Source: Nitrosopumilus sp.
Lineage (GTDB): Archaea; Thermoproteota; Nitrososphaeria; Nitrososphaerales; Nitrosopumilaceae
Direction: 5' to 3'
Assembly: GCA_965206745.1 (NCBI GenBank)
Contig: OZ242220.1
Location: 1,600,001 to 1,664,000 of the forward strand
DNA length: 64,000 nucleotides
The notes beneath the pieces are model-generated. The model saw nothing but the letters and a program-made list of their open reading frames with translations, ran no database searches and had not been told where the DNA came from. The number at the start of each line of letters is the position of its first letter. The first letter of the stretch is position 1. Below are positions 28,665 through 64,000 of the stretch, piece after piece. The translations under genes and the position numbers were made by a program.

Positions 28665-28733
28665 ATATTTTTCAATAGTGCCAATTTTTTAAATTTATCT
28701 TTTTTCGATATTACTGTGTTTATGAGAACATGA

Positions 28734-28894: not shown

Positions 28895-28920
28895 TAGATT
28901 TTTTTTAGCGTAATGAAAGA

Positions 28921-42093: not shown

Positions 42094-43380
42094 ATGAGAT
42101 ATGAGAGTTTAAATGATCCACGATCTGAATTTCTTAAACAAGTTCAAAAAACATCTAATTGGTTTAAGAATGTTGAAATTTCTTTAGTGATTGTAAAAGA
42201 AGAAGGAAAGAATTTGTTAGTTGCAGGTAATGCGATCTTTGTTCACAAAAATGATGAAAACAGAAAAGAGATAACATATGACTATGACCGAGTAGTTTTA
42301 GCTAGAAGAATTTTGGAGATTGATGAATTCATCAAGTTATTTCCATCTAAACCTTCAAACACATTAGACATCAAAGATCTAGAGGCTATTTTTCTTGGAA
42401 CAGGTTTTGACCATGGCGTTTATCACATTCCCAGCAATTCTAAAGGATTTGATATGTTATTTGATTGGTCATCTAGAGTGTATCTATATGTGAGTGATCA
42501 AAGCACTTCCTATGATAGCGGATGGGATTTTCTTGTCAAACCTAACTGTCCCCCATTTCCTAATTTGAATGACGCAATAGATTCATTCTTAGATAAAGAG
42601 CATGCCCTTAGAGATCATCGTATTGATGGTCTAAAAATTATTTTGCCTGATTATCATGCACGTATCAAAGATATCGTAATATCTGATAACAGTATTTCAG
42701 TTGAAATAGAATCTAGAGAAATTAATCAAGATCAACTAATTTTTAAAATAAATGCCAAATATGGCCAAAAGCAATTTTTGTCTGAGGATATTTACATAGA
42801 TCAAAAGATCATTTACGTAAAAATCCCATTTAAACCTGAAACCATGTACTTATTTTTGATTGACAAGACTAATGGCAGTCTTTTTGATTTTGTAGAGTAT
42901 GGAAATTACACTACAGATCGTGTTAAACATATCACAATCAAAACATCCTCTGAATTAATTGAATCTTTGATTACCAAGGGAGAGAACAAAAATATTGAGT
43001 TAAAACGTAAAATAGGTTCTGAATTCTTAGAATCTGTAGGGGCTTTTGCAAATACTGAAGGTGGAAAAATTATTCTAGGCGTGGATGATCGTCAAAATAT
43101 TGTTGGGATTCATGATGATTTCTCAAAGTTGGAAAAACAAATTCGAGGTACAATTAATGGTAGAATTCAACCTCAAATAGAGGTGAATGTTGAGTTAATT
43201 GAAATTCGTCAAAGTCCTGTTGTGGTTGTTACCGTTCCTAATGGTAAGAACAAACCTTACTTGTTAGATGGAGTTGCATATATCCGAAATGACGAAGCAG
43301 ATGTGGCAATGGGTAGATCTGAATTAGATGCAATATACCATTCTAGATATTCTGTGAATAGAGACTCTGATCAAGATTAG
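42094..43380 (+). CDS. Protein with C-terminal Schlafen/AlbA_2 domain
   Basis: GENKNIELKR..VGAFANTEGGKIILGVDD..KPY..YIR. Confidence 0.8.
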   Translation: MRYESLNDPRSEFLKQVQKTSNWFKNVEISLVIVKEEGKNLLVAGNAIFVHKNDENRKEITYDYDRVVLARRILEIDEFIKLFPSKPSNTLDIKDLEAIFLGTGFDHGVYHIPSNSKGFDMLFDWSSRVYLYVSDQSTSYDSGWDFLVKPNCPPFPNLNDAIDSFLDKEHALRDHRIDGLKIILPDYHARIKDIVISDNSISVEIESREINQDQLIFKINAKYGQKQFLSEDIYIDQKIIYVKIPFKPETMYLFLIDKTNGSLFDFVEYGNYTTDRVKHITIKTSSELIESLITKGENKNIELKRKIGSEFLESVGAFANTEGGKIILGVDDRQNIVGIHDDFSKLEKQIRGTINGRIQPQIEVNVELIEIRQSPVVVVTVPNGKNKPYLLDGVAYIRNDEADVAMGRSELDAIYHSRYSVNRDSDQD

Positions 43381-46736: not shown

Positions 46737-47656
46737 GTTTCTAATTCCTCTAAGAATTTTTTTCTAAATTTATCTACACTTTTGAACGGCAGTATGTAAA
46801 AAGTTGTTGTTCTATTACGATCATCAGTTAAATTATTTTGAATAGATTCAGACACTGTCTTAAACAATCTATCATGTTCTTTTTGATATTCAGTTTGTAA
46901 ATAATTTCTAAGAGATGATTCAGATGCTGGTTTTTGTTTTCCCATTAAAGATTCATCATAACCAATAAACACTGCATTGGTTTTTGATAAATTACGTTTA
47001 TCTGAATATGGTGATAAAAGTTTAACAAGTTTCTCTGCGTATTCATCATATCTACTATTATCAATATGGCTTGAGACCAAATCAATTTCAAATTTTTCTT
47101 TTTTATGATCAAAATTTTTTATATCTTTAACTGCAGCATTCACTCCCGAAGAAAAATCCTTATGCATTTTAGATTGACCGTAATGTAGAATTATGCCATT
47201 ATCTACTTGAATATGAATTGCATCTAACCCATGAACATGCATTTGACTACTAGATTTGAGATTCATTTTATTCAAAAGTTGGAATATGCTTTTAGATTCA
47301 AGAATTAAAAAAAGAATTAATTCACCAGCTTCACCTGTTGTTTTATTTTTCACAAATTTACTTTTTGTTTTTTTCACAATATCAAACATTTTTGATGCTT
47401 GTTCTTCGGCAGTTAATCCTTCTAGAATGTATTCTTTTCTTTGTAAAACATAATTAATGCTTTTACTAGTAATAAATTCTATAAACTCTTCTTCACGAAT
47501 TTCACTCACTGTAGATTCAATTAGAAAAAATTCACAATTCAATTTCTGTTTAGATTTTGAATTTGGAAAAGAATACAAGATATTATCTAAAGTTGATTCA
47601 TTAATTGATCGTCTATTCTCCATAAATTTTTTGAATTCTGATTCATTTAGTGGCAA
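46733..47656 (-). CDS. hamA: Hachiman HamA (DUF1837) nuclease
   Basis: GEAGELILFLILE, KMNLK..VHGLDAIH, GQSK, VFIGYD, LPF. Confidence 0.85.
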   Translation of the reverse strand: MPLNESEFKKFMENRRSINESTLDNILYSFPNSKSKQKLNCEFFLIESTVSEIREEEFIEFITSKSINYVLQRKEYILEGLTAEEQASKMFDIVKKTKSKFVKNKTTGEAGELILFLILESKSIFQLLNKMNLKSSSQMHVHGLDAIHIQVDNGIILHYGQSKMHKDFSSGVNAAVKDIKNFDHKKEKFEIDLVSSHIDNSRYDEYAEKLVKLLSPYSDKRNLSKTNAVFIGYDESLMGKQKPASESSLRNYLQTEYQKEHDRLFKTVSESIQNNLTDDRNRTTTFYILPFKSVDKFRKKFLEELET

Positions 47657-49766: not shown

Positions 49767-50036
49767 TTAATCTCTGGTTTTTGATATTATCAGGCCCAAT
49801 GCTATTGCTAAACCACCACCAATAATAACGCCTTTGCCCAAATCACTCTTCCACACATGTTTGACCAGTTCAGGGATGGATTCGTGTGGATCATTTTCAT
49901 CATAATGTGTTGAGCAGTTACCAGTTACAGGATCACACTCTGCATGCCAGTGCCCATTACGAAAATGGATTTTGTCTAATTTTTCACCTAATGATGGCTT
50001 CCAGTCTGGGTCTGCCTGATAGTCGTGAATACTCAT
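49767..50036 (-). CDS. Small His-rich protein with C-terminal TM helix
   Basis: HFR..HWH..HYDENDP..KH then GVIIGGGLAIALGLII. Confidence 0.6.
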   Translation of the reverse strand: MSIHDYQADPDWKPSLGEKLDKIHFRNGHWHAECDPVTGNCSTHYDENDPHESIPELVKHVWKSDLGKGVIIGGGLAIALGLIISKTRD

Positions 50037-50251
50037 ACTATCAAAATATGACTACTAGTATTTAATGATCAATGAAAAATTCCTTGTACAGTATCAGAGC
50101 AGATCATCATATTCGACCATAACTATAACAGTAAACCTCAAGTAGGTTTGTTATACCCATAACAATTTATACAAATATATTATCAATTAATTGAAATGTG
50201 CATTTTTTTCTCAAAAATAGACTTCCAAATTAGCCTCAAAATGGAGAAAAA

Positions 50252-51274
50252 ATGGTAATCAACACCCATACGTTTGAGGCAATTCGTGGAAGACAGGCAG
50301 GTAGTGATTTCTACATTGCCATGTGTACGTTAAAGTCTGTGGCAAAGATGTTTACATTCAAGGATGCAGATATTCCAGCAGAACAGAGAGCTCAGAGAAT
50401 ACTTCGTAAATCTAGGATTCCAAGGATACGTGATTACATTTTACAAAATTCAGAGGATTACACTTTTTCATCAATTACCGTATCAGTGGATGGAAAGATA
50501 ACATTCAAGCCAACTTCAGCGAAGAAAGATCTTGGGGAGATTTCAATATCTCAGGAGGCAGCAATTCTAATCAATGACGGGCAGCACCGTGCAGCCGCAA
50601 TAAAAGAGGCCATAGTAGAAAATCCGGAACTTGGCAAAGACAAGATATCAGTGGTATTTTTTGAGGACTTAAAACTCGAAAAGAGTCAGCAAATGTTTGC
50701 TGATTTGAACAAGCATGCAGTAAAACCTACAAAGTCACTTGGGATACTATATGACAGACGAAATGACTTTGCAACATTTGTAGTAGACATGATAAAAAAT
50801 GTCAAGGTATTTCACAACAGGATTGAGATGGAAAAGACCAGCATATCCAATCGATCTACAAAATTCTTTACACTCAGTGGATTGGAACTTGCAACAAAGA
50901 ATCTTCTTGGCAAAGACAAGAATCTAAGAAAGGAAGAAAAGGAACTGGTGGTTAGTTTCTGGAATATTGTTGCAAAAAATATTCCAGAATGGGTTTTACT
51001 GATGGATAAGAAGGTGACTCCAGCTGAATTGAGAGGTGACTTTGTCCATGCAAATACAAATATGCTTGAATCAATAGCACTTGCAGGAAGACATCTGATA
51101 AAGAATCATCCAAAAGAATGGAAGCGGAAATTATCCGGATTGCAGAAAATAGACTGGGGCAGGACAAATCCAGAATGGGATGGCAAAATAATCATTCGTG
51201 GCAAGATGACTAAAACCAAGGCAGGGATGAACAAAGCTGCCAAAATTCTGATAAAATACTGTGGAGGCACATGA
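50252..51274 (+). CDS. dndB: DNA sulfur modification protein DndB
   Basis: AIRGRQAG, RAQR, INDGQHR, QQMFADLN. Confidence 0.92.
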   Translation: MVINTHTFEAIRGRQAGSDFYIAMCTLKSVAKMFTFKDADIPAEQRAQRILRKSRIPRIRDYILQNSEDYTFSSITVSVDGKITFKPTSAKKDLGEISISQEAAILINDGQHRAAAIKEAIVENPELGKDKISVVFFEDLKLEKSQQMFADLNKHAVKPTKSLGILYDRRNDFATFVVDMIKNVKVFHNRIEMEKTSISNRSTKFFTLSGLELATKNLLGKDKNLRKEEKELVVSFWNIVAKNIPEWVLLMDKKVTPAELRGDFVHANTNMLESIALAGRHLIKNHPKEWKRKLSGLQKIDWGRTNPEWDGKIIIRGKMTKTKAGMNKAAKILIKYCGGT

Positions 51275-52689
51275 TGGAATCCGTCTTTGAATCAAGAACA
51301 CTAGACGAGATATATACCGAGATTCAGGAGGTGTATCTCGGCGATTCGAGACCCTGGATTCTAGGGTATAGTGGTGGCAAGGATTCCACATGCATGATAC
51401 AGATTATATGGACTGCACTATCAAAGCTACCAAAATCCAAACTGAATAAAAAAATCTACGTGATATCTTCAGATACTCTGGTTGAATCCCCAAAAATAGT
51501 AGAGACTGTGACTGACTCTCTTGAGCAGATGGAGATTTTTGCAAAAAAGTCGTCTATTCCACTTGAGACCAATCTTGTAAGACCAGTACTCAATGACACG
51601 TTCTGGGTGTGCATGATAGGAAAGGGATATCCTGCTCCATCAAACACATTTCGTTGGTGCACAGACAGATTAAAGATAAAGAGTGCAAACAAATTCATCG
51701 AAGACAGGGTATCTGAACACGGAGAAATCATCATGGCACTTGGAAGCAGAAAGGCAGAGAGCAGTACCAGAGCACATGTAATTGACACTCATCGAATCAA
51801 GGGCAGTCCTTTATCACATCACAACATGCTTCCACAGGCATTTATCTATGCCCCACTACAGGACTTTACCACAGAGGATGTCTGGAATTATCTTTTACAA
51901 AATACAGAGAATCAGTGGGGCAAGAATAATCGTGATCTTCTTGCAATGTACCGCGATGCAGATGCCGCTGAATGTCCTCTTGTAATTGATACTAATACTT
52001 CATCATGTGGAAACAGCAGGTTTGGATGCTGGGTGTGCACTGTGGTGGATCGTGACAAGTCAATGGAGAACATGATTGACAATGGCGAGGAATGGATGGA
52101 GCCACTTCTTGAGCTCAGACAGATACTAAAGGACACACAGGATCCAGAAAAAAAGAATGAGTTTCGTGACCTGAAGCACAGAAACGGGCACATCTTATTC
52201 TGGAATGATAGACTTGCATACGGCCCATACAAATTTGAGTTTTGTAAAAAGATACTAGAGGATCTTCTAAAGGCACAAGTTGCCGTCCGCAAAAACGGAC
52301 CGGATCCAAGCATTGCATTAATCCATGACGATGAGATTCATGAAATTCAGCGCATATGGAGGACAGAGCATGGAGACTGGAAAAATTCAGCATATGAGAT
52401 ATATCAGAAAATAACAGGGAGTGTGATTGCTCCAAAGAATGATGACTTGGGACCATTTGGTATCGTAGAACAATCAGAACTAGAGGCATCATGTAACAAG
52501 CACAGCGTCCCATACGAGCTTTTGGCTAGAGCACTGCAAGTGGAATTTGACATGCAAGGCATGACCAACAGGCAAAAAGTGCACAAGTCACTTGTAAAGA
52601 TCCTATCTGAGGAGTGGAGAGAAAATATGACTGATGCGGTACAAGATGTTGCAGATAAAAAACAAAAGATAAAGGAGATTTATGAATAA
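51271..52689 (+). CDS. dndC: DNA phosphorothioation sulfurtransferase DndC
   Basis: YSGGKDS PP-loop, RWCTDRLKI, ECP, CGNSRFGCWVCT. Confidence 0.95.
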   Translation: MMESVFESRTLDEIYTEIQEVYLGDSRPWILGYSGGKDSTCMIQIIWTALSKLPKSKLNKKIYVISSDTLVESPKIVETVTDSLEQMEIFAKKSSIPLETNLVRPVLNDTFWVCMIGKGYPAPSNTFRWCTDRLKIKSANKFIEDRVSEHGEIIMALGSRKAESSTRAHVIDTHRIKGSPLSHHNMLPQAFIYAPLQDFTTEDVWNYLLQNTENQWGKNNRDLLAMYRDADAAECPLVIDTNTSSCGNSRFGCWVCTVVDRDKSMENMIDNGEEWMEPLLELRQILKDTQDPEKKNEFRDLKHRNGHILFWNDRLAYGPYKFEFCKKILEDLLKAQVAVRKNGPDPSIALIHDDEIHEIQRIWRTEHGDWKNSAYEIYQKITGSVIAPKNDDLGPFGIVEQSELEASCNKHSVPYELLARALQVEFDMQGMTNRQKVHKSLVKILSEEWRENMTDAVQDVADKKQKIKEIYE

Positions 52690-54660
52690 TTGCTCCTTGA
52701 AAGACTATCCCTTGAGAATTATGGCTCTTATGCTGACAAGTCCGAGTTTGATTTGTCATCAACGCCTGACAAACCAATCGTCCTTGTAGGCGGACTCAAT
52801 GGCGCAGGAAAGACAACTCTCTTTGAATCACTCATGGTTGCACTGTATGGCAAGACATACCTTGGCAGAAGGGCTACAAAAAAAGAGTATATGGAATTTA
52901 TCTCTGAAAAGATGCACAGGCATGGGAATGTACGGGCAGACTCTGCATCAGTAGAGATTGCATTTAGATTCTATCACAATGGATGTGAAGACGGATATGT
53001 GGTGAATCGAAGCTGGACTCGAGACGGCGCATCTGTATCAGAATCCCTTTTGATACAAAAAAACGGCACTCCAATGAATGATCTTGATGAATCTCAGTGG
53101 CAGTCATTTATTGAAGGACTATTACCTTTGGGAATTGCGCAGTTGTTCTTTTTTGATGGTGAAAAAATAGTACGCATGACCCAATGGAATGATCCGGGCA
53201 ACGATGAGATACAGATATCCCTTGACATGCTGCTCGGGTCTGAATTGATCAATCGGCTTTACTCTGATCTTGATCTTTACATGGTGCGAAGACTGGGCAA
53301 GGCAGATGCAAATGGCGCAATGCAGGAAAAATACAATGAGATGAGCAGAGAAAAAGAATCCCTTGCTTCAGATATTGAAATTTTAAATGCAGAATGTGAG
53401 CAGAAAAATATCGAAATTCAAGAGGCAAACTCGATGGTGGCAAGCAAAGAATCCAAGATCATGGGGATAGGAGGCACCCTGGTAGACACACGCGAAAATC
53501 TGCTTACTCAAAAGGCAGTCCTTGAAGAAAAATTACGACATCAGGGCAAGACCATACAGGAGGAACTTGGGGAGGATGCACCGCTGTACCTTGCCACCGA
53601 AATGTTGCAGGATATAAAAAAACAGGTTGAATCTGACATGTCCATTACAAGCCAAAAGGCATCTGCGCATGCTGCAAAACACAAGATAGGCAAACTCAAG
53701 GACGAGATGGTCAAAGACGAGTTCTGGCCAAATGGCGTGGACGGTGCACTGTCAGATAAAATAATGCAGAGACTGGACAGCATGTTTGAGGCCCCAAGGG
53801 ATGATACCTTTTTTGACATGGCACCAAACGATGCTGCATGGATGCTAGATAAAATCTCCAAGCTGCCTGAAAAATACGACTCGCTATACCAGCAGATTAT
53901 AGAGTACGGCAAGACTGACACGCATTTTGAAAAGGTGGAATCTGATCTTGTACAGATTCCAAAGGATGACGAGATAGGTCCCAAGATATCTGAGATAAAC
54001 TCGCTGCATCAGGAGATTGGAATTTTAAAATCAGAGATTGCACACATCGAACAGCAGGTATCCTCCAAGCAGGCATATCAGAAGATACTTCAAAACAAGT
54101 TAAAGAAAATACTTGATGGCATCTACAAAAACAAAACCGCAGATGCAGGAATGAATCTTGCATCAAATATGCAGAGTGTACTAGATACGTATTCAAAGAA
54201 TCTGCGAGAGCGCAAGATACGTGATCTTGAATCCAATCTTCTCAATGCGACAAAGTCACTGCTACATAAAAAACACATTGATAGAATAGAGATTGACAGG
54301 ACTACATTTGAGATACGAGCGTATGCAAAAGATGACGAGAGTCCCCTAAAGTTGCCATCAATGGGAGAGCGACAGATGGTTGGAACAGCATTGTTGTGGG
54401 CAATCGCTAAAACCAGCGGACGCTCCCTGCCTTTTGTTATTGATACTCCACTAGGACGACTAGACGGCAAGCATCTCTCAAATCTGATGAGCAAGTTCTA
54501 TCCATTTGCATCACACCAGCTGATTCTGCTATCCACAGACAGGGAGATAGGGGGGAAAGAATACGCGGAACTAGAGCCATACACGTCTCGTTCCTATCAG
54601 ATAGCATGCGATGAGAGCAAATCCGTCACCACTGTAACTAGAGGATACTTTGGAGAGTAG
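52690..54660 (+). CDS. dndD: DNA sulfur modification ATPase DndD
   Basis: GLNGAGKTT, FFFDGE, coiled coil, SMGERQ, IDTPLGRLD, STD. Confidence 0.95.
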   Translation: MLLERLSLENYGSYADKSEFDLSSTPDKPIVLVGGLNGAGKTTLFESLMVALYGKTYLGRRATKKEYMEFISEKMHRHGNVRADSASVEIAFRFYHNGCEDGYVVNRSWTRDGASVSESLLIQKNGTPMNDLDESQWQSFIEGLLPLGIAQLFFFDGEKIVRMTQWNDPGNDEIQISLDMLLGSELINRLYSDLDLYMVRRLGKADANGAMQEKYNEMSREKESLASDIEILNAECEQKNIEIQEANSMVASKESKIMGIGGTLVDTRENLLTQKAVLEEKLRHQGKTIQEELGEDAPLYLATEMLQDIKKQVESDMSITSQKASAHAAKHKIGKLKDEMVKDEFWPNGVDGALSDKIMQRLDSMFEAPRDDTFFDMAPNDAAWMLDKISKLPEKYDSLYQQIIEYGKTDTHFEKVESDLVQIPKDDEIGPKISEINSLHQEIGILKSEIAHIEQQVSSKQAYQKILQNKLKKILDGIYKNKTADAGMNLASNMQSVLDTYSKNLRERKIRDLESNLLNATKSLLHKKHIDRIEIDRTTFEIRAYAKDDESPLKLPSMGERQMVGTALLWAIAKTSGRSLPFVIDTPLGRLDGKHLSNLMSKFYPFASHQLILLSTDREIGGKEYAELEPYTSRSYQIACDESKSVTTVTRGYFGE

Positions 54661-54662
54661 GA

Positions 54663-55034
54663 TTGAATAGATTAGACAAGCTGCGACTGTCAATTCGGGC
54701 CCAAAACCACCTAGGTCAGTTAAAGCACAGGACGGGACTGCCAATTAACGTACTTGCAAGATTTGGCATGTGCATGTCCTTGAAGGATTCCAGCATGCCC
54801 AATTCTGACATGTATGATGAGAAGGGCATGGAGTTGATGCCGCATATACTGTTTGGAAAAAATGAACTGATATTTGCTGCAATGTTTCAACACAGATTAA
54901 AAAAAGACGGTTTGGATTATGACCGATATGCCAATAGCATGATACGTGCACACGTGAACCGTGGCGCAAGCATGCTTTTTCCACGAATAGACAGGCTAGA
55001 GGACTTTGCAAAGCTTTTGGAGACAAGAACATGA
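54663..55034 (+). CDS. dndE: DNA sulfur modification protein DndE
   Basis: LK.RTGLP.NVLAR.G.C.SL..E..LFG..AHVNRG. Confidence 0.9.
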   Translation: MNRLDKLRLSIRAQNHLGQLKHRTGLPINVLARFGMCMSLKDSSMPNSDMYDEKGMELMPHILFGKNELIFAAMFQHRLKKDGLDYDRYANSMIRAHVNRGASMLFPRIDRLEDFAKLLETRT

Positions 55035-55770
55035 CGATGAGTGCAAATATCAGAAATTTTGTAGAAACATGTGAAATTAATTCTCTTATAGGCACAGATA
55101 GAAATCTCAGTTTTGTAATTAGGGAGAATGATAACGACGATCAAAGTCTGCTCTATGATGAAGTTAAATCATATTTTTATTCAAATGAGACTAATTATAT
55201 TTCAATGAATATGGGTGAAACAAACGAATGTGATTTAGATTTCATATTTGCTGATGGCTGCACATATGGTCATCTTAAATCAGCAAATTCAAAAGTACGA
55301 AAAAAAATGGATGCTGAGTATTCAAGAGTTCTAAATGATAAACCCAAAGAAGAACTAGACAGCATACTTGATGTATTGAATAGAGATTTTCGACAGATAC
55401 CACATTTATCTAGTGAATTAAAGATATCTGATAAAATTGATTATCCGCAAGAGTATGGACCAATGTATCTCTTAAAACTACCTCATTGATGTGCATAGCA
55501 CTGTTATTTATCAGAAAAATAACTGAATGTGATTCACCGTTTATAGTTCAGGGGGCTTGGTTCAATAGATTAGATGTAAAAGCACGATATGAACTATGCA
55601 AGCTTTTGGCATATCATACAAAACAGACTATTATTTTTACTAATAGATATATCATTGACAAACCATATGAATGTGGGACAGACAAATCATTGCAAGATGC
55701 TCTTCGACATGACGGTGTGTTGGGAAATGTTGATTTTGAAAAAGGAATTATGAAGAATGACACAGATTAA
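55031..55770 (+). pseudogene. Split, catalytically degenerate ABC/DndD-like head domain (ORFs 55031..55489 and 55486..55770)
   Basis: IRNF..NLSFVIRENDNDDQSLLYDEV..FY matches the Walker-A region layout without GKT; DFIFADG resembles FFFDGE; SPFIVQGAWFNRLD resembles PFVIDTPLGRLD. Confidence 0.45.
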
Positions 55771-56920
55771 ATTCCCAATCTATCTTGATCATCATGCTAC
55801 AACACCTTTAGATCCTCAAGTGTTAGAAGAGATGATGCCATATTTGACTGAAAAGTTTGGTAATGCATCTAGTCTGGATCATCCTTTTGGATATGATGCA
55901 TCAGTTGCAGTTGAATCTGCAAGAGAAAAGATTGCAAATGCAATTGGTGCAAGACATGATGAGATTGTTTTTACATCAGGAGCTACAGAGTCAGACAACA
56001 TTGCACTGATTGGTACAATGGAAAAATACAAGGACAAAGGCAATCACATCATTACCTGTACAACTGAGCACAAGGCTGTTTTAGATACCGTAAAACATCT
56101 TGAAAATTTGGGGAAAAAAGCTACCTATCTTCCTGTCAATGAATATGGCCAGATTAATCTTGAAGAACTAAAAGAATCCATCACAGATGAGACTGTCATG
56201 ATATCTGTCATGGCAGCCAATAACGAGATCGGAACAATACATGATATCGCAGAGATTGGAAAGATTGCACACAAGCATGACGTGTATTTTCATACTGATG
56301 CTGCACAAGCTGTAGGTCACATTCCAGTTGATGTTAATGCGATGAACATTGATTTGATGTCATTTTCTGCTCACAAAATGTACGGTCCTAAGGGGATTGG
56401 AGCACTGTATGTTCGCGGAATAAACCCGCGAGTGAGGCCCAATTCCATCATGTATGGCGGAGGTCAGGAGCGAAACATTCGTTCTGGAACTCTAAACGTT
56501 CCTGGAATTGTTGGATTTGGAAAAGCAGCAGAGATTGGAATAAAAAAGATGGAGTCAGAAAATAAAAGATTCAAAGAGTGGACAGACAGGATGCTTGAAT
56601 CATTCCAGTCTGCAGGCGGTAGACTCAATGGAGATAGGGAAAACAGATTATCTTACAATCTCAATATCTATTTTCCAGGCGTTCAAAGCAAGGCAATAAT
56701 TAATTCCGTATCCAAAGAGATTGCAATATCTGCAGGCTCTGCATGTACCAGTGATGCTGTTGAACCATCTCATGTATTGCTTGCGTTGGGTTTTGATGAG
56801 GAACATGCACATTCCTCCATACGAATAGGACTGGGGCGATTCAATACGGAGGAAGATGTTGATTTTTGCATCAAAAAGATATCAAAATCAGTGGAATCCC
56901 TCAAAGGCATTACTGCATGA
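55757..56920 (+). CDS. dndA: Cysteine desulfurase DndA (IscS-like)
   Basis: YLDHHATTP, FTSGATE, HTDAAQ, SAHK (PLP Lys), SAGSAC; located in dnd operon. Confidence 0.92.
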   Translation: MTQIKFPIYLDHHATTPLDPQVLEEMMPYLTEKFGNASSLDHPFGYDASVAVESAREKIANAIGARHDEIVFTSGATESDNIALIGTMEKYKDKGNHIITCTTEHKAVLDTVKHLENLGKKATYLPVNEYGQINLEELKESITDETVMISVMAANNEIGTIHDIAEIGKIAHKHDVYFHTDAAQAVGHIPVDVNAMNIDLMSFSAHKMYGPKGIGALYVRGINPRVRPNSIMYGGGQERNIRSGTLNVPGIVGFGKAAEIGIKKMESENKRFKEWTDRMLESFQSAGGRLNGDRENRLSYNLNIYFPGVQSKAIINSVSKEIAISAGSACTSDAVEPSHVLLALGFDEEHAHSSIRIGLGRFNTEEDVDFCIKKISKSVESLKGITA

Positions 56921-57105
56921 TTGTAATAAATCCCAATAGACTAGCATCAAACTCACATGTATGCTGATGGATATGTGGATATAGACATGAAAATTCTTCA
57001 ATTTGTGTTGTTCATTCCAGAGGATCCATAGTATAGACACATTGGTGGATTTAACAATGAATCCCTAAAAGTTAACAGCATCCTAATTCCTTAAATAATT
57101 ACATC

Positions 57106-58881
57106 ATGACACGTACCATGACTAAATCTGAAAATATTCAAATTAGATTCACAGATAGAAGTAAGGTCAAAGACAAACTTCGAAAATCACAATTTGATGA
57201 CAAAATAACATTTGATTTGACAATTACAGCCTTTGAACTGTTCTCTAAAATCAAAGAAAGTAAACTCTCCATCATTTCTTCAATAAAATCAAACAAGGCA
57301 ATCGAGTTATATGATCATCAGATTTTTGCAGCAATGAAAGTAAAAAATGAGTTAGGAGGTTCAGCAATATTAGCTGATGAGGTTGGTCTTGGGAAAACTA
57401 TGGAGGCAGGAATCATTTTGAAAGAATTTCTAATTTCAGGCCTTGCAAAAAACATCTTGATACTGGTTCCTCCTTCCCTTGTTTACCAATGGCAGGATGA
57501 ATTACAATCAAAGTTCAATCTCAACTTTATACAGAAAGATGATCCAAATTTCCAAGATCCTGCAAGTCATGAATTGCTGATATTTTCACACAGTTCAGCC
57601 ACATCGCCTGCAAAGAAAGAATTGTTGATGAGGCGAAATTGGGATATGATTATTGTTGATGAGGCGCACAGTATGAAAAATGCATCCACTCAAAAACATC
57701 AGTTGTTAAAAGAATTATCACGAAAATTTACACTATTTCTTTCTGCAACACCCATCCAGAATAATCTCTTAGAACTGTATAACTTGGTTGAATTACTAAA
57801 GCCTGGAACTTTTGGCACCGTGTCTGAGTTTAAAACTAGATATGCGGATGATTCACAAATGCGCAGAGTGAATCCGTTTTTCAAGGAAGAATTACAAATA
57901 AAACTGTCAAAAATAATCATCAGAACAACAAGACAGCAAGTAAAAAAATACATTACTTTCACAGATAGAATTGCACATACCAAGATCCTCAAACCTACTG
58001 ATGATGAACGTGACTTGTATGATAGAATTACAAATAAGATCCGTAACTTTTATGATTCTGGATATGATATTCTATATCTCATGGTAATACAGAGATTGAT
58101 ATCTAGTAGTAATGAATCCACCAAACAAGCTTTATTCAAGATGTTAAAATCAAAGATAATTGATGAAAATAATTATGCAGAATTAATGGAAATTGCAAAC
58201 AGGATAAAAATGGATACCAAGGCAAGTGATCTTTTAGACGTAATCAAGAGGGATAAATATTCGAAATTTCTAATATTTACAGAGTACCATGTGACACAGG
58301 ATTATCTGGCTAGAGTATTTGCAAAAAATGGATATTCTGTAACTTTGTTTAACGGGAAAATGAATCTTACAGAGCGAGCCGAATCTGTTGAAAAATTCAG
58401 AGACAAATCACAAATTATGATTTCAACAGGAGCAGGTGGTGAAGGACAGAATTTTCAATTTTGTCATAACGTTGTCAATTATGATCTTCCATGGAATCCG
58501 ATGAGGGTAGAACAAAGAGTTGGAAGAGTGCATCGGATAGGACAAAAAAATAACGTGAATATATACAATTATGCCTATGAAAACACGATTGACGCACACA
58601 TTCTGCAGCTGCTTTATATAAAAATTAAATTATTTACTATGGCCATTGGACATCTGGATTTACTGTTTGAAGATGTTACAGATGAGAAAACAGGAACACA
58701 TTTTTTTAAAGAATACATGACTGCAAAAAACGAAAAAGACTTGAAAAATAAATTCTCAACGATGGGAGATGGTTTTAAAAATAGAAAAGAAGATCTTGCC
58801 AATGCCATAGAACAATTCAATCAAGAAGTTTTTGATAATTTTTCGTTATCACCAATTGAGAATGGAAATGTCATTGATTGA
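57106..58881 (+). CDS. SNF2-family helicase (YqhH/HepA-like)
   Basis: LADEVGLGKT, DEAH, SATPIQN, GGEGQNFQ, WNPMRVEQRVGRVHRIGQ. Confidence 0.9.
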   Translation: MTRTMTKSENIQIRFTDRSKVKDKLRKSQFDDKITFDLTITAFELFSKIKESKLSIISSIKSNKAIELYDHQIFAAMKVKNELGGSAILADEVGLGKTMEAGIILKEFLISGLAKNILILVPPSLVYQWQDELQSKFNLNFIQKDDPNFQDPASHELLIFSHSSATSPAKKELLMRRNWDMIIVDEAHSMKNASTQKHQLLKELSRKFTLFLSATPIQNNLLELYNLVELLKPGTFGTVSEFKTRYADDSQMRRVNPFFKEELQIKLSKIIIRTTRQQVKKYITFTDRIAHTKILKPTDDERDLYDRITNKIRNFYDSGYDILYLMVIQRLISSSNESTKQALFKMLKSKIIDENNYAELMEIANRIKMDTKASDLLDVIKRDKYSKFLIFTEYHVTQDYLARVFAKNGYSVTLFNGKMNLTERAESVEKFRDKSQIMISTGAGGEGQNFQFCHNVVNYDLPWNPMRVEQRVGRVHRIGQKNNVNIYNYAYENTIDAHILQLLYIKIKLFTMAIGHLDLLFEDVTDEKTGTHFFKEYMTAKNEKDLKNKFSTMGDGFKNRKEDLANAIEQFNQEVFDNFSLSPIENGNVID

Positions 58882-59641
58882 AGATCAGATAAATTCACTT
58901 GTCTTAGGATATTTCTCTAAAATTAATGCAAATGTTATAGAGAAAAACGGATTATTTGATGTTGAAATTCCTAAAGAATATTCAAAAATGTTTGGGACAA
59001 CCAAGTTAAAAATTACATTTGATACAAAACTTTCAGGTTTCGATGACTATGTGTTGATATCTCCTGGAAGTGATATTCTGCTGTCTATTCTAAGACTCGC
59101 TCTAGATTTTGGTCCTGTTACAAGTGTCAGATTAAATTCAACGAAGCACGGTTCAAGAATTATAAGGTTTTATTTTTATGTATTATTCGAGTCAGTGCAA
59201 TCCAAGACCAAATTAGTGCATGTGGATGTTAATGTAAATGATAAAAAGATTACAGTGATTGATGATTCTGAAATTAATTTTGATGAATCCAACTTGAATA
59301 TCAAAATCCAACCTGAGATTATTGATGATTGTTATGTTGAATCTATAACATATTTGGAACAAAGTTTATTCAAATCAGATATAATTAATTTTAAAAATCA
59401 TATATTACATCTCAAACAAGAAGAATTGGACAATATCATTTTGGAATATGAAAAACGTAGGAAGGAAATTCAAGATCAATTTATTATTTTAAGAAGTAAG
59501 GGAAAATCTGGAATTGCACTTGAAAGTCTTATTGATAAAAATCAAATCATACGTAATGAAGAAATCCATATACGAGAAAATTTGGATAAAAAATATGCTG
59601 TGGTAATAGATTTTGCACTAATCGCATCTTTGATAATTTAA
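58868..59641 (+). CDS. Helicase partner, YqhG-like
   Basis: Overlaps helicase stop; LKITFD..ISPGS.IL..I pattern and C-terminal coiled coil, as in partners of YqhH-type SNF2 helicases. Confidence 0.55.
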   Translation: MSLIEDQINSLVLGYFSKINANVIEKNGLFDVEIPKEYSKMFGTTKLKITFDTKLSGFDDYVLISPGSDILLSILRLALDFGPVTSVRLNSTKHGSRIIRFYFYVLFESVQSKTKLVHVDVNVNDKKITVIDDSEINFDESNLNIKIQPEIIDDCYVESITYLEQSLFKSDIINFKNHILHLKQEELDNIILEYEKRRKEIQDQFIILRSKGKSGIALESLIDKNQIIRNEEIHIRENLDKKYAVVIDFALIASLII

Positions 59642-59679
59642 CACAAAGAACATATACCTATTTCTTTGAAGAGGCAATA

Positions 59680-60615
59680 TTGCCATCTAATTCTAACAAA
59701 TTCAAAAAATTTGATTATATTGAACTTGACAAATTGTATGTTGGCTTGAGTAATGTTCGAATAGAAAATGCAACCAATGAGGAAGAATTACTAATTCTTG
59801 CAGAACATATTGGAAAACACGGATTACTAGAACCCATTGTTGTTTTTGCAGTAAATGAACTTGATGAAGAACATCCATTATATGAAAGTAGAAAAGCCAA
59901 GAAGGATCAATATGAAATTTTAGCTGGTCAACGAAGATGGAATGCATTTAGGATACTAAACGAAGAAAATCCAAATGAAGGATGGGATAAAATTCCTTGT
60001 CACATAAGAGAATCTCCTGATGATGATGTTGATGCAAAAGCAATTTCACTTGGTGAAGGATTAACTCAACTTCCATATACACTGGCCGATATTATTGATG
60101 CCTGTGATGCACTCTTCAAAAAATACAATGATCCCAAAATTGTTGCAAGAAAGACGGGCATTTCAACAACTCTCGTAAACAAATATGTCAAATTTGCAAG
60201 ATTACCAAAATTCATTCAGGAAAATTTGGGGGCAATTCATAGAAACCCTAAAACTGCTGTACAGTTAGGTGTGGAAGCAGCAGATGCATTAGCATGGTCT
60301 CCAGATAATGAGGTTCCGGAGAATAAAGTATATGACCTTGCAATAAAATTGGGAGAAAAGAAAAAGAAATCTCAGGAAGATTATAAAAAATTCAAACAAG
60401 CAGCTGAAGAAAACCCCAAACTGAAATTAAATGAAATTGAAGAAGAATCATTAAAAATTATGTCTCCAAAAAAATACACCGTTATTCTTGATGCAAAAAT
60501 TGCCACACGCCTAGATACTGCAGCTGAAAAAAGTGGACGAGATGCAGGAGAGGAAGCATCTAACATTATTGAAACTGAATTAAATCGTAGAGAAGGACAT
60601 TCTTCAGAAGAATAA
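59680..60615 (+). CDS. ParB/Srx CTPase-domain protein with HTH
   Basis: NVR..GLLEPIVV..YEILAGQRRWNA..IPC; HTH PKIVARKTGISTTLV. Confidence 0.85.
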   Translation: MPSNSNKFKKFDYIELDKLYVGLSNVRIENATNEEELLILAEHIGKHGLLEPIVVFAVNELDEEHPLYESRKAKKDQYEILAGQRRWNAFRILNEENPNEGWDKIPCHIRESPDDDVDAKAISLGEGLTQLPYTLADIIDACDALFKKYNDPKIVARKTGISTTLVNKYVKFARLPKFIQENLGAIHRNPKTAVQLGVEAADALAWSPDNEVPENKVYDLAIKLGEKKKKSQEDYKKFKQAAEENPKLKLNEIEEESLKIMSPKKYTVILDAKIATRLDTAAEKSGRDAGEEASNIIETELNRREGHSSEE

Positions 60616-60623
60616 TCTTCAAC

Positions 60624-61421
60624 ATGGTTGAAAAGATTTTAGATGATTTGGATACCTATTCAGATCTTTTGTTAAGTATTGGAACTCATAATACGGATAG
60701 GCCTTTTACTCCTATTGAGGTCTCAGATCTTCTTTTGAGACTAAAGAAAGAAACAGGGGATTCATTGGAGCAATTATCAAAAAGAGTAGGATTGGGTAAA
60801 AAACGCAAAAAATCAACAGTTGATAAACAAATAGATACCAGCCAAATAAAATTATTTGAAAAACTACAAAATCTGTCTAGAAGAAATGCATACATGCTTG
60901 GATGGGGAGTCTCAAAGGATGGGAAAATCTCAATGACTATTGGATGTGATATTGCAACAATACCCAACAAAGACGAACAAGATATTATTTTAAACACGAT
61001 TCTTCAAAGTTTAGATACAAACAAACCTATACGTAAAAATGACGTAAAAAACATCATCAATAGAAAAACCAAGTCTCCCGATACTCCTATAGAAGGAATC
61101 ATCCAACATGTCATGGATATTAAACCTATAATAGAACTATTTTGGAAAATTGGGATTACACCTGAAAATGATTTCCTTGATAAATTTAGGCAAAAATCAT
61201 CTAATGAAAAAATCATTCCATCAGAACTATTAAGAAAGTTGTTGGAAAGAAAGATAGAAAAAGATATGATAAAATCCATATCCATTTCAAACAATAATTT
61301 GATTTGGATTACATTAGATGAAAATAATTTTAAAGAATTAGAGAAGGAATGGAAGTCTAGAAAAATTCCAGTGACTAGTTTTTTCAACAAAATTTTAAAC
61401 GAGGAAATTCAAATTGAATGA
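60624..61421 (+). CDS. ParB-HTH-like protein lacking the CTPase domain
   Basis: FTPIEVSDLLLRLKKETGDSLEQLSKRVGLG..L..L...GKISMT.G..IA resembles ParB central domain. Confidence 0.5.
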   Translation: MVEKILDDLDTYSDLLLSIGTHNTDRPFTPIEVSDLLLRLKKETGDSLEQLSKRVGLGKKRKKSTVDKQIDTSQIKLFEKLQNLSRRNAYMLGWGVSKDGKISMTIGCDIATIPNKDEQDIILNTILQSLDTNKPIRKNDVKNIINRKTKSPDTPIEGIIQHVMDIKPIIELFWKIGITPENDFLDKFRQKSSNEKIIPSELLRKLLERKIEKDMIKSISISNNNLIWITLDENNFKELEKEWKSRKIPVTSFFNKILNEEIQIE

Positions 61422-62511
61422 TTTAAGCCAATTGGCAAAAATTCATTGTGATATAATGAGTCCAAGGACAGAAGATGGGGTTCCCAAAGATCAAGCAATT
61501 TTACTTGGCAATTCCATAGTTTGTGATGGATATGTAACTGGAAAAACCACAGCTATTTTTACACATTTTCATGATGATCATACATGGAATTTTAATAGTG
61601 CATTAAGAAATTGTCATAACATTTTGCTAACAGAAGCTACCTATAGATCTCTTCAGGCGTTACAGAAATTTCCTGAACGGCCTGCTATTCAGATATTATC
61701 ATACAATTCATCATTTACAACCACAACTGGAGAAATAATAGAATTAATTAATGCAAATCATGTTCCAGGTTCCTCCCAGGTATTAGTAACAATGGAAGAA
61801 ACTAATCAAAAAATTCTCTATTCAGGAGACTTTTCATTTCCAGACATATCTGCCCCAAAAGCAGACGTGTTGGTTTTGGATGGAACTCATGGAATTCCAC
61901 TTTATGATTTTAATACGGATAAGCAATCTATTCTAAGACGTATCTTTGACGAGGTTTGTCATCAAATTGAAAATGATCGCCCTGTGGAAATTCTAACCCA
62001 TCGTGGCACGATGCAAGACATCATGGCACATCTATCAAAACAAGAAAATGGGAATTTTATCGCAGACGATATTCCATTTTTGGCAGAACCAAATGATGTT
62101 GCTCTTACTGACGCGCTGAGATATACTTATGATGCAAATATTAGAGAAGTTGAGATCTCAACAAATAGCAGATTAAATGAGTTATACAATGAGCAAAACA
62201 AACCATACATACGATTTGCAAGACCAGGTCATGGTTCAATGCAGCAAGAACGGGCTCAAACAATACAGATAGATGTTAATCCAAATTATAAGACTAAGGG
62301 TCCGTTTTGGACTGATAAAAATGGGAAAATCTATGCCTGTTTAGCCGCTCATGCAGATTATGGAAATATTCTAAAATATGTAAAATCAGTAGATCCGAAA
62401 CATGTTATTGTAGACGGAACAAGAGCTAATTCTGATGATTCAAAAGATCTTGCAAATGCAATTAGTAAAGAATTTGGAATTACGTGTTTTATGAATCATT
62501 GTAAATCATGA
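61414..62511 (+). CDS. Metallo-beta-lactamase / beta-CASP nuclease (SNM1-like)
   Basis: THFHDDH, ANHVPGS, YSGD, LDGTHG, AAHAD. Confidence 0.8.
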   Translation: MNDLSQLAKIHCDIMSPRTEDGVPKDQAILLGNSIVCDGYVTGKTTAIFTHFHDDHTWNFNSALRNCHNILLTEATYRSLQALQKFPERPAIQILSYNSSFTTTTGEIIELINANHVPGSSQVLVTMEETNQKILYSGDFSFPDISAPKADVLVLDGTHGIPLYDFNTDKQSILRRIFDEVCHQIENDRPVEILTHRGTMQDIMAHLSKQENGNFIADDIPFLAEPNDVALTDALRYTYDANIREVEISTNSRLNELYNEQNKPYIRFARPGHGSMQQERAQTIQIDVNPNYKTKGPFWTDKNGKIYACLAAHADYGNILKYVKSVDPKHVIVDGTRANSDDSKDLANAISKEFGITCFMNHCKS

Positions 62512-63863
62512 CCAAACAAAAGATATTAAGAGATTTTCTGATTAATGCCGTAAAGGAATCCATTGATAAATTTGATGAAGCCGGTTTAAAAAAAACATTA
62601 AAGCAAAAAAATCTAAAACATTATGAATTTAAAAATGATTGTTTTAATAAAGAAATACCAATTAAAAAAAATGATTTTGAAGAATTTTTCTCAAGAAAAG
62701 AAGTTAAATCAAAATTGGAAAAACTTGATGATTTTGATGACATAGTGGGCATTGTTTCAGGATATTCCAATACGCAGATTTTTTTGAAAAGGAAACTAAC
62801 GGGAAAAAGATTAGTTTTTTCTTTTATGGAAAACTATACAAAAAATGTAGATGATTTTAAATTTGATAGAGAGGTATTTGAAAAGATTTTTAAAAGTTTC
62901 ATCAAATTTTTAGATTCAAAAATTTTACAAGTTCATTATTTTACTCCATTATTTCGTCTATCTTTTCCTTCTAGGCACAATGGAAAAGAATTAGATGAGA
63001 TTAAACTTGTAAAAATTAATGAAGAGCGTTTTAAAATTATCAAAGACAGTTTGGTTGGAGATAGGGCACCTCCCGGTTCACTTCGAAAATTAAGTTATGT
63101 ACTTGAAACAAGTGTGAATTTTGAAGATAATTCATCTGATGAGGATAAGGCTGCTCAAAAAAAATTTAACACATTTCTAAATGCTGCACATTTGTTTGGC
63201 AAGGGTGATTTGAAAATTGGTCCCATTTACAAAAACTATTCCCCTTGGATGTATAATTCATCAAAAATTTTGAATATGCATGAAATTGTACTTGGTCCAA
63301 ACATACTTCAACTGAATTCTTCCTCATATGATGAATTAAAAAGATTTCATCATGAATATTGTAATGTTGATTTTGACAAGGATTGGTCATTTGTTCAGGT
63401 AGCCATAGATAGATTTTCCTCAAGTATTTTGAGAAACGATCCAATTGATAAGATTGTAGATCTTAATGTTGCATTAGAATGCTTGTTCAGTTCCTCTGGT
63501 GAAACGTCATTAAAAATTTCTAATCGTTCTGCAATGATAGTTGGTCTTAATGAAAATGATAGAGAAAATTGTTGGAATTTTATTAAAAATACCTATCGAT
63601 TACGAAATGACATATTGCATGGAAGAAAAGGAAATGATATTGATATGACTAATGACGTTATAGAATTAGAAAAAATCATTCGAACATCCATAAGAAAATT
63701 TCTCAATATTTATAAAAACATATCAAAAAAAGAATTAAAATCACAAAGTAAGACTGGAGATCAAAATATTCGCGATTACATACTAAATGAATTAGATTTA
63801 GGATTGATTAATAGAACCAGATTGAAAACCTTTTCAGTGCAAACAACAGGTAATTTTGATTGA
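62508..63863 (+). CDS. ApeA-like HEPN domain protein
   Basis: AIDRF..IVDLNVALECLF..TYRLRNDILHG. Confidence 0.8.
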   Translation: MTKQKILRDFLINAVKESIDKFDEAGLKKTLKQKNLKHYEFKNDCFNKEIPIKKNDFEEFFSRKEVKSKLEKLDDFDDIVGIVSGYSNTQIFLKRKLTGKRLVFSFMENYTKNVDDFKFDREVFEKIFKSFIKFLDSKILQVHYFTPLFRLSFPSRHNGKELDEIKLVKINEERFKIIKDSLVGDRAPPGSLRKLSYVLETSVNFEDNSSDEDKAAQKKFNTFLNAAHLFGKGDLKIGPIYKNYSPWMYNSSKILNMHEIVLGPNILQLNSSSYDELKRFHHEYCNVDFDKDWSFVQVAIDRFSSSILRNDPIDKIVDLNVALECLFSSSGETSLKISNRSAMIVGLNENDRENCWNFIKNTYRLRNDILHGRKGNDIDMTNDVIELEKIIRTSIRKFLNIYKNISKKELKSQSKTGDQNIRDYILNELDLGLINRTRLKTFSVQTTGNFD

Positions 63864-63876
63864 TATTGCCATCTCA

Positions 63877-64000
63877 TCAATCATTAAATTCATTTGAATG
63901 TTCTTTGGCAAATTCTTTTGCATTTCCTTGATTTTTTATCTGATCAATCATTTCCCAAGCCCATTGTTTTAAAATTCTACGACCTTTCTCATATTCCCAC
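63877..64000 (-). CDS. C-terminus of a gene entering from beyond the window
   Basis: Open frame ..WEYEKGRRILKQWAWEMIDQIKNQGNAKEFAKEHSNEFND*. Confidence 0.5.
   Translation of the reverse strand, partial: WEYEKGRRILKQWAWEMIDQIKNQGNAKEFAKEHSNEFND

Follow-up and report, generated by a model that had tools for sequence, protein, structure and literature searches.

Phosphorothioation is, to our knowledge, the only natural modification of the DNA backbone, and among the described DNA-modification systems those closest to the locus reported here are DndFGH, PbeABCD, SspABCD-SspE and Dpd. The locus lies in a stretch of 64,000 nucleotides of the archaeon Nitrosopumilus sp. (GenBank assembly GCA_965206745.1, contig OZ242220.1, positions 1,600,001 to 1,664,000 of the forward strand), the whole of which is called the window below. 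It consists of a complete phosphorothioation (dnd) operon followed by a cassette of six genes (genes 1 to 6) for an SNF2-family ATPase, its partner of 257 amino acids (aa), a ParB protein, a helix-turn-helix (HTH) paralogue of ParB, a beta-CASP nuclease and a HEPN-like protein. At roughly even odds (a probability of about 0.5), this cassette is a new restriction or effector arm coupled to phosphorothioation. The reading is carried by the conservation of the trio of ParB, HTH paralogue and nuclease, by its linkage to DndC, by a second dnd operon with a second cassette in the same genome, by invariant catalytic motifs and by a natural fusion of the HTH paralogue with the nuclease. In addition, the partners of the trio (GmrSD/SspE-like proteins, GHKL ATPases and the HEPN-like protein) are typical of defence, and the setting is a defence island. 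That is to say, the idea of an earlier sequence-only reading of the window, which had proposed the six genes as an effector module of a phosphorothioation system, stands in outline; the unit is a trio with add-ons, and its dependence on phosphorothioate is a candidate property only.

Among the known systems, DndFGH is similar in that DNA binders, an NTPase motor and a nuclease are clustered beside the dnd genes and that loci with modification only are common. The difference is that DndH joins a HerA/FtsK ATPase to a REase domain in a chain of about 1700 aa (PMC10853773), whereas the cassette proteins are small and separate. None of the six proteins matches a Dnd restriction model of PADLOC or NCBIfam, and no DndF/DndH-type or SspE-type gene is found in the cluster. 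In the whole genome, dnd_restrict_1 (TIGR04095) gives helicase-level matches only (at most 30.8 bits, cut-off 600), and dnd_assoc_1 and dnd_assoc_3 (TIGR03236 and TIGR03238) give no match, in a search in which the control genomes are silent too and DndG was not included. PbeABCD is likewise an archaeal cassette downstream of dnd that includes a helicase; PbeA is a PLD-helicase, PbeC is SMC-like, PbeB and PbeD have 66 and 152 aa, and the set shows low co-evolution with DndCD and solitary copies (PMC6459918). However, a ParB pair and a beta-CASP nuclease stand here in place of PLD and SMC-like components: Pfam finds no PLD domain in gene 1 and no SMC-like AAA_23 (PbeC-type) gene among the six, and the PLD family PF13091 is absent from the whole genome in a search whose control was positive in 12 of 14 genomes. 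The sequence-only reading had described a helicase without PLD and a window without recognisable dndFGH, pbe or ssp genes; this is what is found for PLD, DndF/DndH-type and SspE-type genes in the cluster, and of the pbe genes elsewhere in the genome, which it had considered as another source of restriction, a PLD-bearing PbeA is not found either.

SspABCD-SspE resembles the bacterial relatives of the cassette, whose neighbours likewise include a cysteine desulfurase, a PAPS-reductase-type enzyme and a protein of DUF262/DUF1524 (GmrSD, SspE-like) type, and the roles of ATPase, DNA binder or nickase and sulfur enzyme could map one to one. It differs in that the sulfur enzyme of the bacterial cassettes is of DndC type (PADLOC DndC 7.6e-115 against SspD 7e-6), that neither DUF4007 (SspB) nor DUF499 (SspC) occurs in the scanned bacterial operon, and that the cluster in the window has no SspE-like gene; no GmrSD_N/GmrSD_C (DUF262/DUF1524) protein is among the six, and the sole GmrSD_N open reading frame (ORF) of the genome (C1:885719) is about 715 kb away. 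Dpd is also linked to DNA modification and combines a ParB-fold NTPase (DpdB, a ParB-like ATPase; PMC12839542) with an SNF2 helicase (DpdE, by the names of the PADLOC and NCBIfam models), but gene 1 reaches only 208.6 bits with the NCBIfam DpdE model (cut-off 500), the modification genes here are dnd, and no TGT (DpdA) family appears in Pfam scans of the cassette and dnd genes. For DISARM, gene 1 remains below the DrmD cut-offs, and the other five proteins match none of DrmA, DrmB and DrmC. For the proteins of genes 2, 4, 5 and 6, PADLOC-DB 2.0.0 has no model, as searched with both copies and one bacterial cassette; the SNF2 protein has generic matches only (BrxHI/DrmD/DpdE/ZorD), and the ParB matches PD-Lambda-5_A weakly. 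As the sequence-only reading had supposed, the PADLOC and NCBIfam models thus give no known system for the cluster. The nuclease kinds recorded near Dnd genes are HKD, HNH, REase, URI, HEPN and PIN, and that list, in its available part, holds no beta-CASP nuclease, SNF2 helicase or second ParB (PMC10853773). Within the literature searched, that is, the available parts of PMC10853773, PMC12839542, PMC3710099, PMC3632139, PMC6459918, PMC12704722 and PMC9289680, with supplements and subscription journals outside the scope, the cassette appears not to have been described previously.

The six ORFs extend from 57106 to 63863, tightly packed and all on the plus strand, and the first starts 185 base pairs (bp) past the end of dndA. 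Genes 1 and 2 overlap by 50 bp (by 14 bp with the later start of gene 2 given below), genes 2 and 3 are separated by 38 bp and genes 3 and 4 by 8 bp, whereas genes 4 and 5 overlap by 8 bp and genes 5 and 6 by 4 bp; the coordinates agree with the co-oriented, closely joined run of genes that had been noticed from the letters alone. Directly upstream is the complete modification operon dndBCDE-(two small ORFs)-dndA, as identified by Pfam.

Relatives of the cassette were collected by a profile search with the nuclease, one genome being kept per species, and the best 80 of the 115 loci were taken with 10-kb flanks. Their called ORFs were compared with iterated profiles built from the window proteins, and DndC was detected with a broader PAPS-reductase profile. 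A DndC-type PAPS reductase lies near the nuclease in 70 of the 80 loci, at a median distance of 4.7 kb and a maximum of 8.1 kb; in 51 loci it is upstream and co-oriented, and 3 of the 10 loci without it are truncated, their contigs ending less than 2.6 kb upstream. The link between cassette and dnd, which the sequence-only reading had assumed from a single locus, is therefore real across archaea and bacteria and far beyond chance. As to the other genes, all 80 loci contain a ParB and an HTH paralogue, which form a core trio with the beta-CASP nuclease. The counts are 63 loci for SNF2, 25 for DndD, 22 for DndE, 20 for DndB, 6 for the HEPN-like protein and 3 for the gene 2 protein, the last two being confined to Nitrosopumilaceae-type archaea. 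The loci come from 13 named phyla, among them Pseudomonadota (18), Acidobacteriota (11), Chloroflexota (10), Poribacteria (8), Actinomycetota (8) and Nitrososphaerota (7); several belong to taxa named for sponge association. Of the supposed module of six genes, only ParB, ParB-HTH and beta-CASP are universal, and a single conserved six-gene system is ruled out by the locus contents and by the non-orthologous SNF2 proteins described below. The cassette has three layers, namely the core trio, the SNF2 motor and the HEPN-like protein of Nitrosopumilaceae type.

A second dndBCDEA operon with a paralogous cassette is located just past the window end in the same genome (G000:C1:1666589-1677106; L001:10590-16958 and L002:994-5107). 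In this copy 2, the dnd operon is followed after 35 bp by a ParB of 288 aa, an HTH paralogue of 251 aa, a beta-CASP protein of 366 aa and a HEPN-like protein of 459 aa, without SNF2. Identity to the window proteins is 31% for ParB, 23% for the HTH paralogue and 29% each for the beta-CASP and HEPN-like proteins, and the two dnd operons are 29-69% identical to each other. The nuclease tree (FastTree, 81 rows) puts the two copies in different archaeal subclades, so that they are not the result of a recent duplication. Between both systems, the minus strand carries a 397-aa ORF without family (L001:7878-9071); a 98-aa PIN-like/DUF5615 ORF (L001:9640-9936) also lies there.

The linkage was also followed within the family, in a sample of 301 Nitrosopumilaceae genomes in which a true nuclease homologue was defined by more than 140 bits (one genome, G077, is flagged as unpublished and enters only the counts of genomes without true homologue and without DndC). 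A true homologue is present in 11 of the 301 genomes and DndC in 46. DndC occurs in 9 of the 11 nuclease genomes against 37 of the 290 others, a comparison in which kin are not independent; the two exceptions are fragmented assemblies. The nuclease and DndC lie within about 12 kb of each other in 7 genomes and on different contigs in 2. In other words, Dnd often occurs alone and the cassette seldom does, which is the pattern that a restriction arm should show.

According to the modification genes, three architectures can be distinguished. In type I (25 loci and both copies here), classical dnd genes with DndD precede the cassette. In type II (41 loci), the typical order is cysteine desulfurase, short DndC, GmrSD/SspE-like protein, SNF2, ParB, HTH paralogue and beta-CASP, with frequent gene overlaps. 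The short DndC passes the NCBIfam cut-off (351.7 bits, cut-off 290.4) over positions 5-341 of 447, i.e., without the C-terminal quarter. The GmrSD/SspE-like protein was recognised in 26 loci by clustering, 2 of which were checked with Pfam, and its best PADLOC matches are HEC-06, Orf5 and SspE. In type III (5 loci), uncharacterised proteins and a PAPS reductase of 282-296 aa precede the cassette, with a GHKL ATPase in the scanned locus L027. GHKL-type ATPases (HATPase_c_3) were observed beside the cassette at L027:1774-4122 and L042:11164-12768; such neighbours occur in type III loci and in part of the Poribacteria loci. On the nuclease tree, the architecture label changes 14 times, compared with a mean of 34.3 after shuffling and with none of 200 shuffles as low, although near-copies inflate such clustering. 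One clade of 38 rows contains 36 of type II from at least 8 phyla, which indicates that the whole operon moves as a unit. As a separate observation, the nuclease of L009 (Candidatus Poribacteria) falls inside the archaeal clade beside a Nitrosopumilus locus, with support 100 and on long branches, which hints at a transfer between bacterium and archaeon.

Several observations weigh against a restriction arm, and the first of them concerns DndD. DndC is present without DndD in 46 of the 80 loci, and SNF2 occurs in 45 of these 46, as opposed to 17 of the 25 loci with DndD. This distribution is as compatible with modification as with restriction, and with DndD missing from so many loci the cassette may itself take part in modification. 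It would then be part of a DndD/E-independent modification machine, in which the SNF2 motor, recognition by ParB and the HTH paralogue and nicking by the beta-CASP enzyme replace DndD/DndE or SspB/SspC for DndC; the GmrSD/SspE-like protein would be the true effector of the bacterial seven-gene operons, and in the window the cassette would give DndC another means of delivery, either redundant or specialised. For this speak the absence of DndE and of any DndD over the cut-off from 5 of 5 type II genomes searched whole (the same DndE search recovers both copies of the present genome), the shortened but above-threshold DndC, and the operon order with overlapping genes in which the GmrSD/SspE-like protein takes part. 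Nevertheless, we regard this explanation as unlikely, for DndD is present together with the cassette in the window and in 24 other loci, where no substitute is needed, SNF2 is absent from copy 2, L005, L006, L007 and L010, the 37 Nitrosopumilaceae genomes mentioned above have DndC and no cassette, and five genomes have the trio and no DndC. Also against it, a PAPS-reductase-type enzyme alone is reportedly sufficient for phosphorothioation in the Tdp system.

These five genomes, in which the trio has no neighbouring PAPS reductase and no DndC is found anywhere (genome completeness is not reported for them), form a second point against the restriction arm, since they suggest that the trio can work without phosphorothioation. 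A third is the shuffling of partners. The DndC of operon 1 is closest to that of L010 (82% identity) and of L005/L006 (76%), with that of L003 at just 55%; the nuclease next to it is closest to that of L003 (80%), and its identity to the L006 and L010 nucleases is just 31-32%. There is thus no fixed pairing of a cassette with its own dnd genes, and the possibility that each dnd operon co-evolves with its own cassette is ruled out. Moreover, related genomes are non-independent samples, the beta-CASP profile matches enzymes that cut RNA and enzymes that cut DNA alike, and the HEPN assignment consists of a motif and a sub-threshold lead. The trio without DndC and the shuffled modules, together with the dense defence island of the window and the argument that DndFGH itself is a standalone system (PMC10853773), would suit an independent defence system that merely tends to adjoin dnd, responds to another infection cue and leaves phosphorothioate unread. 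This is likewise unlikely, because a DndC within 8.1 kb in the great majority of loci, and directly upstream on the same strand in 51 of them, exceeds the expectation from co-location in islands; the gaps after dndA in copy 2 and copy 1 are 35 bp and 185 bp, and the bacterial operon has overlapping genes and travels across phyla as one piece.

With respect to the single proteins, the sequence-only reading had proposed the labels SNF2, YqhG-like, ParB, ParB-HTH, beta-CASP and HEPN for genes 1 to 6; profile searches and alignments bear out the first, third, fourth (at family level) and fifth of these, the second is unsupported, and the last is plausible.

Gene 5, the nuclease, passes the Pfam Lactamase_B cut-off narrowly (23.2 bits, cut-off 22.7), with RMMBL below cut-off. 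Its alignment has the invariant residues H51, H53, D55 and H56 (HxHxDH), H116, D139 and H313, and the position of motif C is, by eye, an invariant Asp; the stretches LVLDGTHG and HAD.. presumably correspond to beta-CASP motifs A and B. When the profile is compared with solved structures, all 42 of the 42 matches listed are beta-CASP enzymes. Judging from these motifs and matches, gene 5 is a beta-CASP nuclease with an intact predicted metal site, for which the choice between DNA and RNA is not readable from sequence. SNM1A/Apollo, the ligase-associated exonuclease and Cas14 of type VII CRISPR share with it the fold, the metal motifs and a length of 340-365 aa, with profile matches of 1e-13 to 1e-16; as a difference, gene 5 belongs to a separate family that stays far below every NCBIfam cut-off and always stands beside the ParB pair. 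The family is rare (about 266 representatives at E<=1e-30 among 1.84 billion), and searches of 72,556 plasmids, 50,697 phage records and the IMG/VR contigs give no homologue, which argues against a partition or phage function.

It is here that a housekeeping role has to be weighed, i.e., repair or processing at phosphorothioate sites by SNF2 and an SNM1/Apollo-like exonuclease, or a function of ParB in partition of the chromosome or the island. The best NCBIfam match of the nuclease is TIGR04122, a ligase-associated exonuclease of the DNA damage response (1.3e-11, far below cut-off), SNM1A and Apollo are among the solved relatives of its profile, and ParB (COG1475) is enriched in sponge-associated Thaumarchaeota, where it was read as partition (PMC9289680). 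Such a role is nonetheless very improbable: no ParA is seen in the cluster, the HEPN-like, GmrSD and GHKL neighbours are of a kind usual in defence, and the family has no plasmid homologues and is as rare and patchy as the counts above show.

Gene 3 has a Pfam ParB_N domain of 35.3 bits (cut-off 26.3). In an alignment of 27 sequences, G83, Q84, R85 and R86 of box II are invariant and A89 nearly so, and in box III, with its ENL..R pattern, E126 is invariant and N127 nearly so. An HTH follows ParB_N, the NCBIfam parB_part and Noc matches being below cut-off (TIGR00180, 42.1 bits, cut-off 58.45), and the C-terminal segment is a strand-helix-helix that looks like a ribbon-helix-helix by eye. By these boxes, gene 3 is a ParB whose predicted sites for nucleoside triphosphate (NTP) binding are intact; the choice of nucleotide is not readable from sequence (PMC12704722). 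Gene 4 shows in its alignment the pattern of the ParB DNA-binding domain, without an N-terminal NTPase domain and with an additional C-terminal domain; a bacterial homologue matches NCBIfam parB_part over positions 102-183 of 186, and the paralogue of copy 2 matches HTH_ParB at 7.8e-4, below cut-off. The CTP-gated clamps of ParB/Noc type have the same order of ParB_N, with GxRR box II and EN..R box III, and HTH, but are distinguished from the present pair by what accompanies it here: a paralogue lacking the N-terminal domain and a nuclease, with no ParA and no parS candidate seen. As regards ParABS, neither a ParA partner nor parS sites were found in the cluster and its neighbours (Pfam for ParA, with no genome-wide ParA search made), and there are no notable palindromes; inverted repeats in 50000-64000 amount to four short pairs, none of them in the gap between dndA and the SNF2 gene and none a parS-like candidate. 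In the 582-aa database protein P0180, residues 1-235 correspond to the HTH paralogue and residues 241-573 to the nuclease (hhalign probability 100, E 8.5e-53), and the same fusion occurs at L052:7428-9176 in a Dehalococcoidales-type genome. Among the available data, this fusion is the strongest hint at a physical cooperation between the HTH paralogue and the nuclease. A co-fold of ParB, nuclease and HTH paralogue scored 0.00, which is evidence neither for nor against contact.

Gene 1 has the Pfam domains SNF2-rel_dom (1.8e-35) and Helicase_C (1e-23), with a Walker A GLGKT and a DEAH box in its translation. It remains under every curated NCBIfam cut-off: DrmD gives 256.3 bits against 950 (a second DrmD model 241.7 against 610) and RapA NF003426 gives 230.4 against 576, over profile positions 107-641 of 959. 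In a comparison with solved structures, the match to RapA reaches 1.8e-39, residues 19-243 aligning to RapA 109-343, including the region before the ATPase core. Gene 2 can start 12 codons later than its 269-aa ORF, as its homologues of 257 aa do (32 clusters, all at least 48% identical). It has no family in Pfam, PADLOC or NCBIfam, and the 32 homologous clusters carry no Pfam domain. The YqhG label is not supported by the sequence, since Pfam gives no match at E<=0.01 to YqhG (PF11079), the sole match being a sub-threshold Ig_TgrO1, and the model of the protein resembles a part of RapA instead. In a Foldseek search of this model (pLDDT 85.4) against the Protein Data Bank (PDB), the best match is RapA 6bog_A (E 4.6e-7, probability 1.00, TM-score on the query 0.34); the sole four matches at E<=0.001 are RapA chains, the fifth (1.1e-3) is RapA too, and the probabilities are 0.98-1.00. 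The resemblance covers the C-terminal region of RapA only. From the two RapA matches taken together, genes 1 and 2 look like a split RapA-like enzyme with a motor of 591 aa and a C-terminal piece of 257 aa. In contrast to RapA itself, the enzyme here is archaeal and divided between two genes, has no RapA N-terminal domains, and nothing ties it to RNA polymerase. With the SNF2 proteins of the bacterial cassettes the window protein scores 58-100 bits, against 139 bits with RapA, whereas a bacterial cassette SNF2 is closest to the Sulfolobus Rad54-like enzyme and ISWI, with RapA not among its 60 best matches. By these scores the two are not orthologous, and an SNF2 motor has been recruited to this position at least twice.

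Gene 6 has the motif R366-x4-H371, invariant in 22 sequences, in an all-helical C-terminal domain (model pLDDT 87.6), and the N-terminal two thirds match no family. The motif and its helical setting speak for the HEPN label; on the other side, no Pfam family reaches threshold (1 of the 22 members matches HEPN_RiboL-PSP at E 0.02), and the whole model compared with the PDB by Foldseek gives a best E of 0.16, which is not a usable match. The nearest named Atlas clusters carry HEPN_Apea with scores of 0.83-0.84, as a lead only. A HEPN-like protein and candidate RNase is therefore a plausible description of gene 6. In L003, the closest relative by its nuclease, three ORFs of 71, 215 and 127 aa (L003:11095-12464) stand in place of an intact HEPN-like gene, and the other cassette genes are whole.

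The data fit a trio that is a self-contained DNA-targeting nuclease module, repeatedly coupled to DndC-type modification and to an SNF2 motor. From the domain content, the following course may be proposed for a restriction arm of this kind. The HTH paralogue would bring the nuclease to DNA, the full ParB would load onto DNA and spread along it as a clamp gated by a nucleotide, and the SNF2 motor would translocate the assembly. The sulfur marks placed on the cell's own DNA by DndBCDE-DndA would stop or disengage the assembly, so that unmarked incoming DNA would be degraded. The HEPN-like protein could serve as a back-up RNase leading to dormancy or suicide if restriction fails.

The features of the locus are collected in Table 1. 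The two small ORFs between dndE and dndA have no Pfam, NCBIfam or PADLOC match, and the second dnd operon has no small ORFs at this position.

Table 1. Positions of the dnd operon, the cassette and an upstream HNH gene in the window.
Feature	Position	Strand	Basis
HNH endonuclease-domain protein, 333 aa	48744-49745	+	Pfam HNH 1.5e-6, residues 236-278
dndB	50252-51274	+	Pfam DndB 8.2e-118
dndC	51271-52689	+	Pfam PAPS_reduct; above NCBIfam DndC cut-off in genome search
dndD	52690-54660	+	Pfam AAA_23/SMC_N
dndE	54663-55034	+	Pfam DndE 4e-20
Two small overlapping ORFs, 152 and 94 aa	55031-55489, 55486-55770	+	Between dndE and dndA
dndA	55757-56920	+	Pfam Aminotran_5 2.3e-87
Gene 1, SNF2-family ATPase, RapA-like, 591 aa	57106-58881	+	Pfam, NCBIfam, solved-structure match
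Gene 2, SNF2 partner, RapA C-terminal-like fold, 257 aa	58868-59641 (ORF can start at 58832, 269 aa)	+	Foldseek of model
Gene 3, ParB, 311 aa	59680-60615	+	Pfam ParB_N, alignment of 27
Gene 4, ParB-HTH-only paralogue, 265 aa	60624-61421	+	Alignments
Gene 5, beta-CASP metallo-beta-lactamase nuclease, 365 aa	61414-62511	+	Pfam Lactamase_B, invariant motifs, profile against PDB
Gene 6, HEPN-like protein, 451 aa	62508-63863	+	Rx4H motif, alignment of 22

The HNH protein is co-oriented with dndB and lies 506 bp upstream of it, and a homologue was observed near the cassette in L008. Comparison with solved structures gives no relative, and the N-terminal 235 residues have no assigned domain. HNH belongs to the nuclease kinds recorded near Dnd genes (PMC10853773), and the protein could be a further dnd-associated nuclease outside the cassette.

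The genome has 1.86 Mb and is 99.6% complete, and its closest relatives place the window in a Nitrosopumilus-type archaeon; the window has about 30% G+C, swinging between 0.28 and 0.45, and a tRNA scan and an Rfam scan of it gave nothing. As a defence island, the window holds Hachiman, an OLD-family ATPase, Schlafen-like proteins and double GTPases. The Hachiman-type pair at 44142-47656 (-), directly upstream of the dnd locus, consists of HamA (PF08878, 1.7e-38) and a DEAD/Helicase_C helicase. The OLD-family ATPase with TOPRIM domain (AAA_21, OLD-like_TOPRIM) is located at 7635-9659 (-), and the two Schlafen proteins with AlbA_2 domain are located at 11191-12354 (-) and 42094-43380 (+). At 24833-32139 (-), a GAP1-N2 protein (602 aa), a double-GTPase protein (330 aa) and a RelA_SpoT-domain protein (329 aa) stand in a run that ends with a 1072-aa ORF with a weak match to a pPIWI-associated nuclease; this run is a candidate GTPase-centred conflict system. 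A DDE transposase/integrase-core ORF is found at 2496-3629 (+). The 308-aa ORF at 36885-37811 (+), which has a match to "Nucleoporin FG repeat" (1.9e-13) and is overlapped by ORFs in other frames, is most likely a low-complexity repeat protein.

A wider proposal, which we hold only tentatively and consider somewhat unlikely, is that SNF2, ParB, ParB-HTH and beta-CASP are the partner of DndC in a third sulfur-modification architecture. In it, a nucleotide-gated ParB clamp rather than an SMC-like DndD or DUF499 ATPase would find and scan DNA, and one and the same assembly would deliver DndC to self DNA and aim the beta-CASP nuclease at unmarked DNA. The loci of Nitrosopumilus would then have a hybrid origin, a classical dndBCDE operon having acquired this machine together with a HEPN-like RNase as a weapon. 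The operons without DndD and DndE bear directly on whether DndC can function with delivery components of another kind altogether.

For many dnd loci, no restriction partner is recognised; for instance, DndFGH is present in just 806 of 3416 taxa with a Dnd-linked endonuclease (PMC10853773). If the cassette is a restriction arm, the dnd loci of ammonia-oxidising archaea and of many uncultured bacterial lineages would gain such a partner; several of these lineages belong to taxa named for sponge association. By a link that we infer, the "Spo0J/ParB" enrichment reported for sponge-associated Thaumarchaeota (PMC9289680) may then have a reading other than chromosome partition. If true, ParB-type nucleotide switches and beta-CASP nucleases would join the parts list of modification-based immunity.

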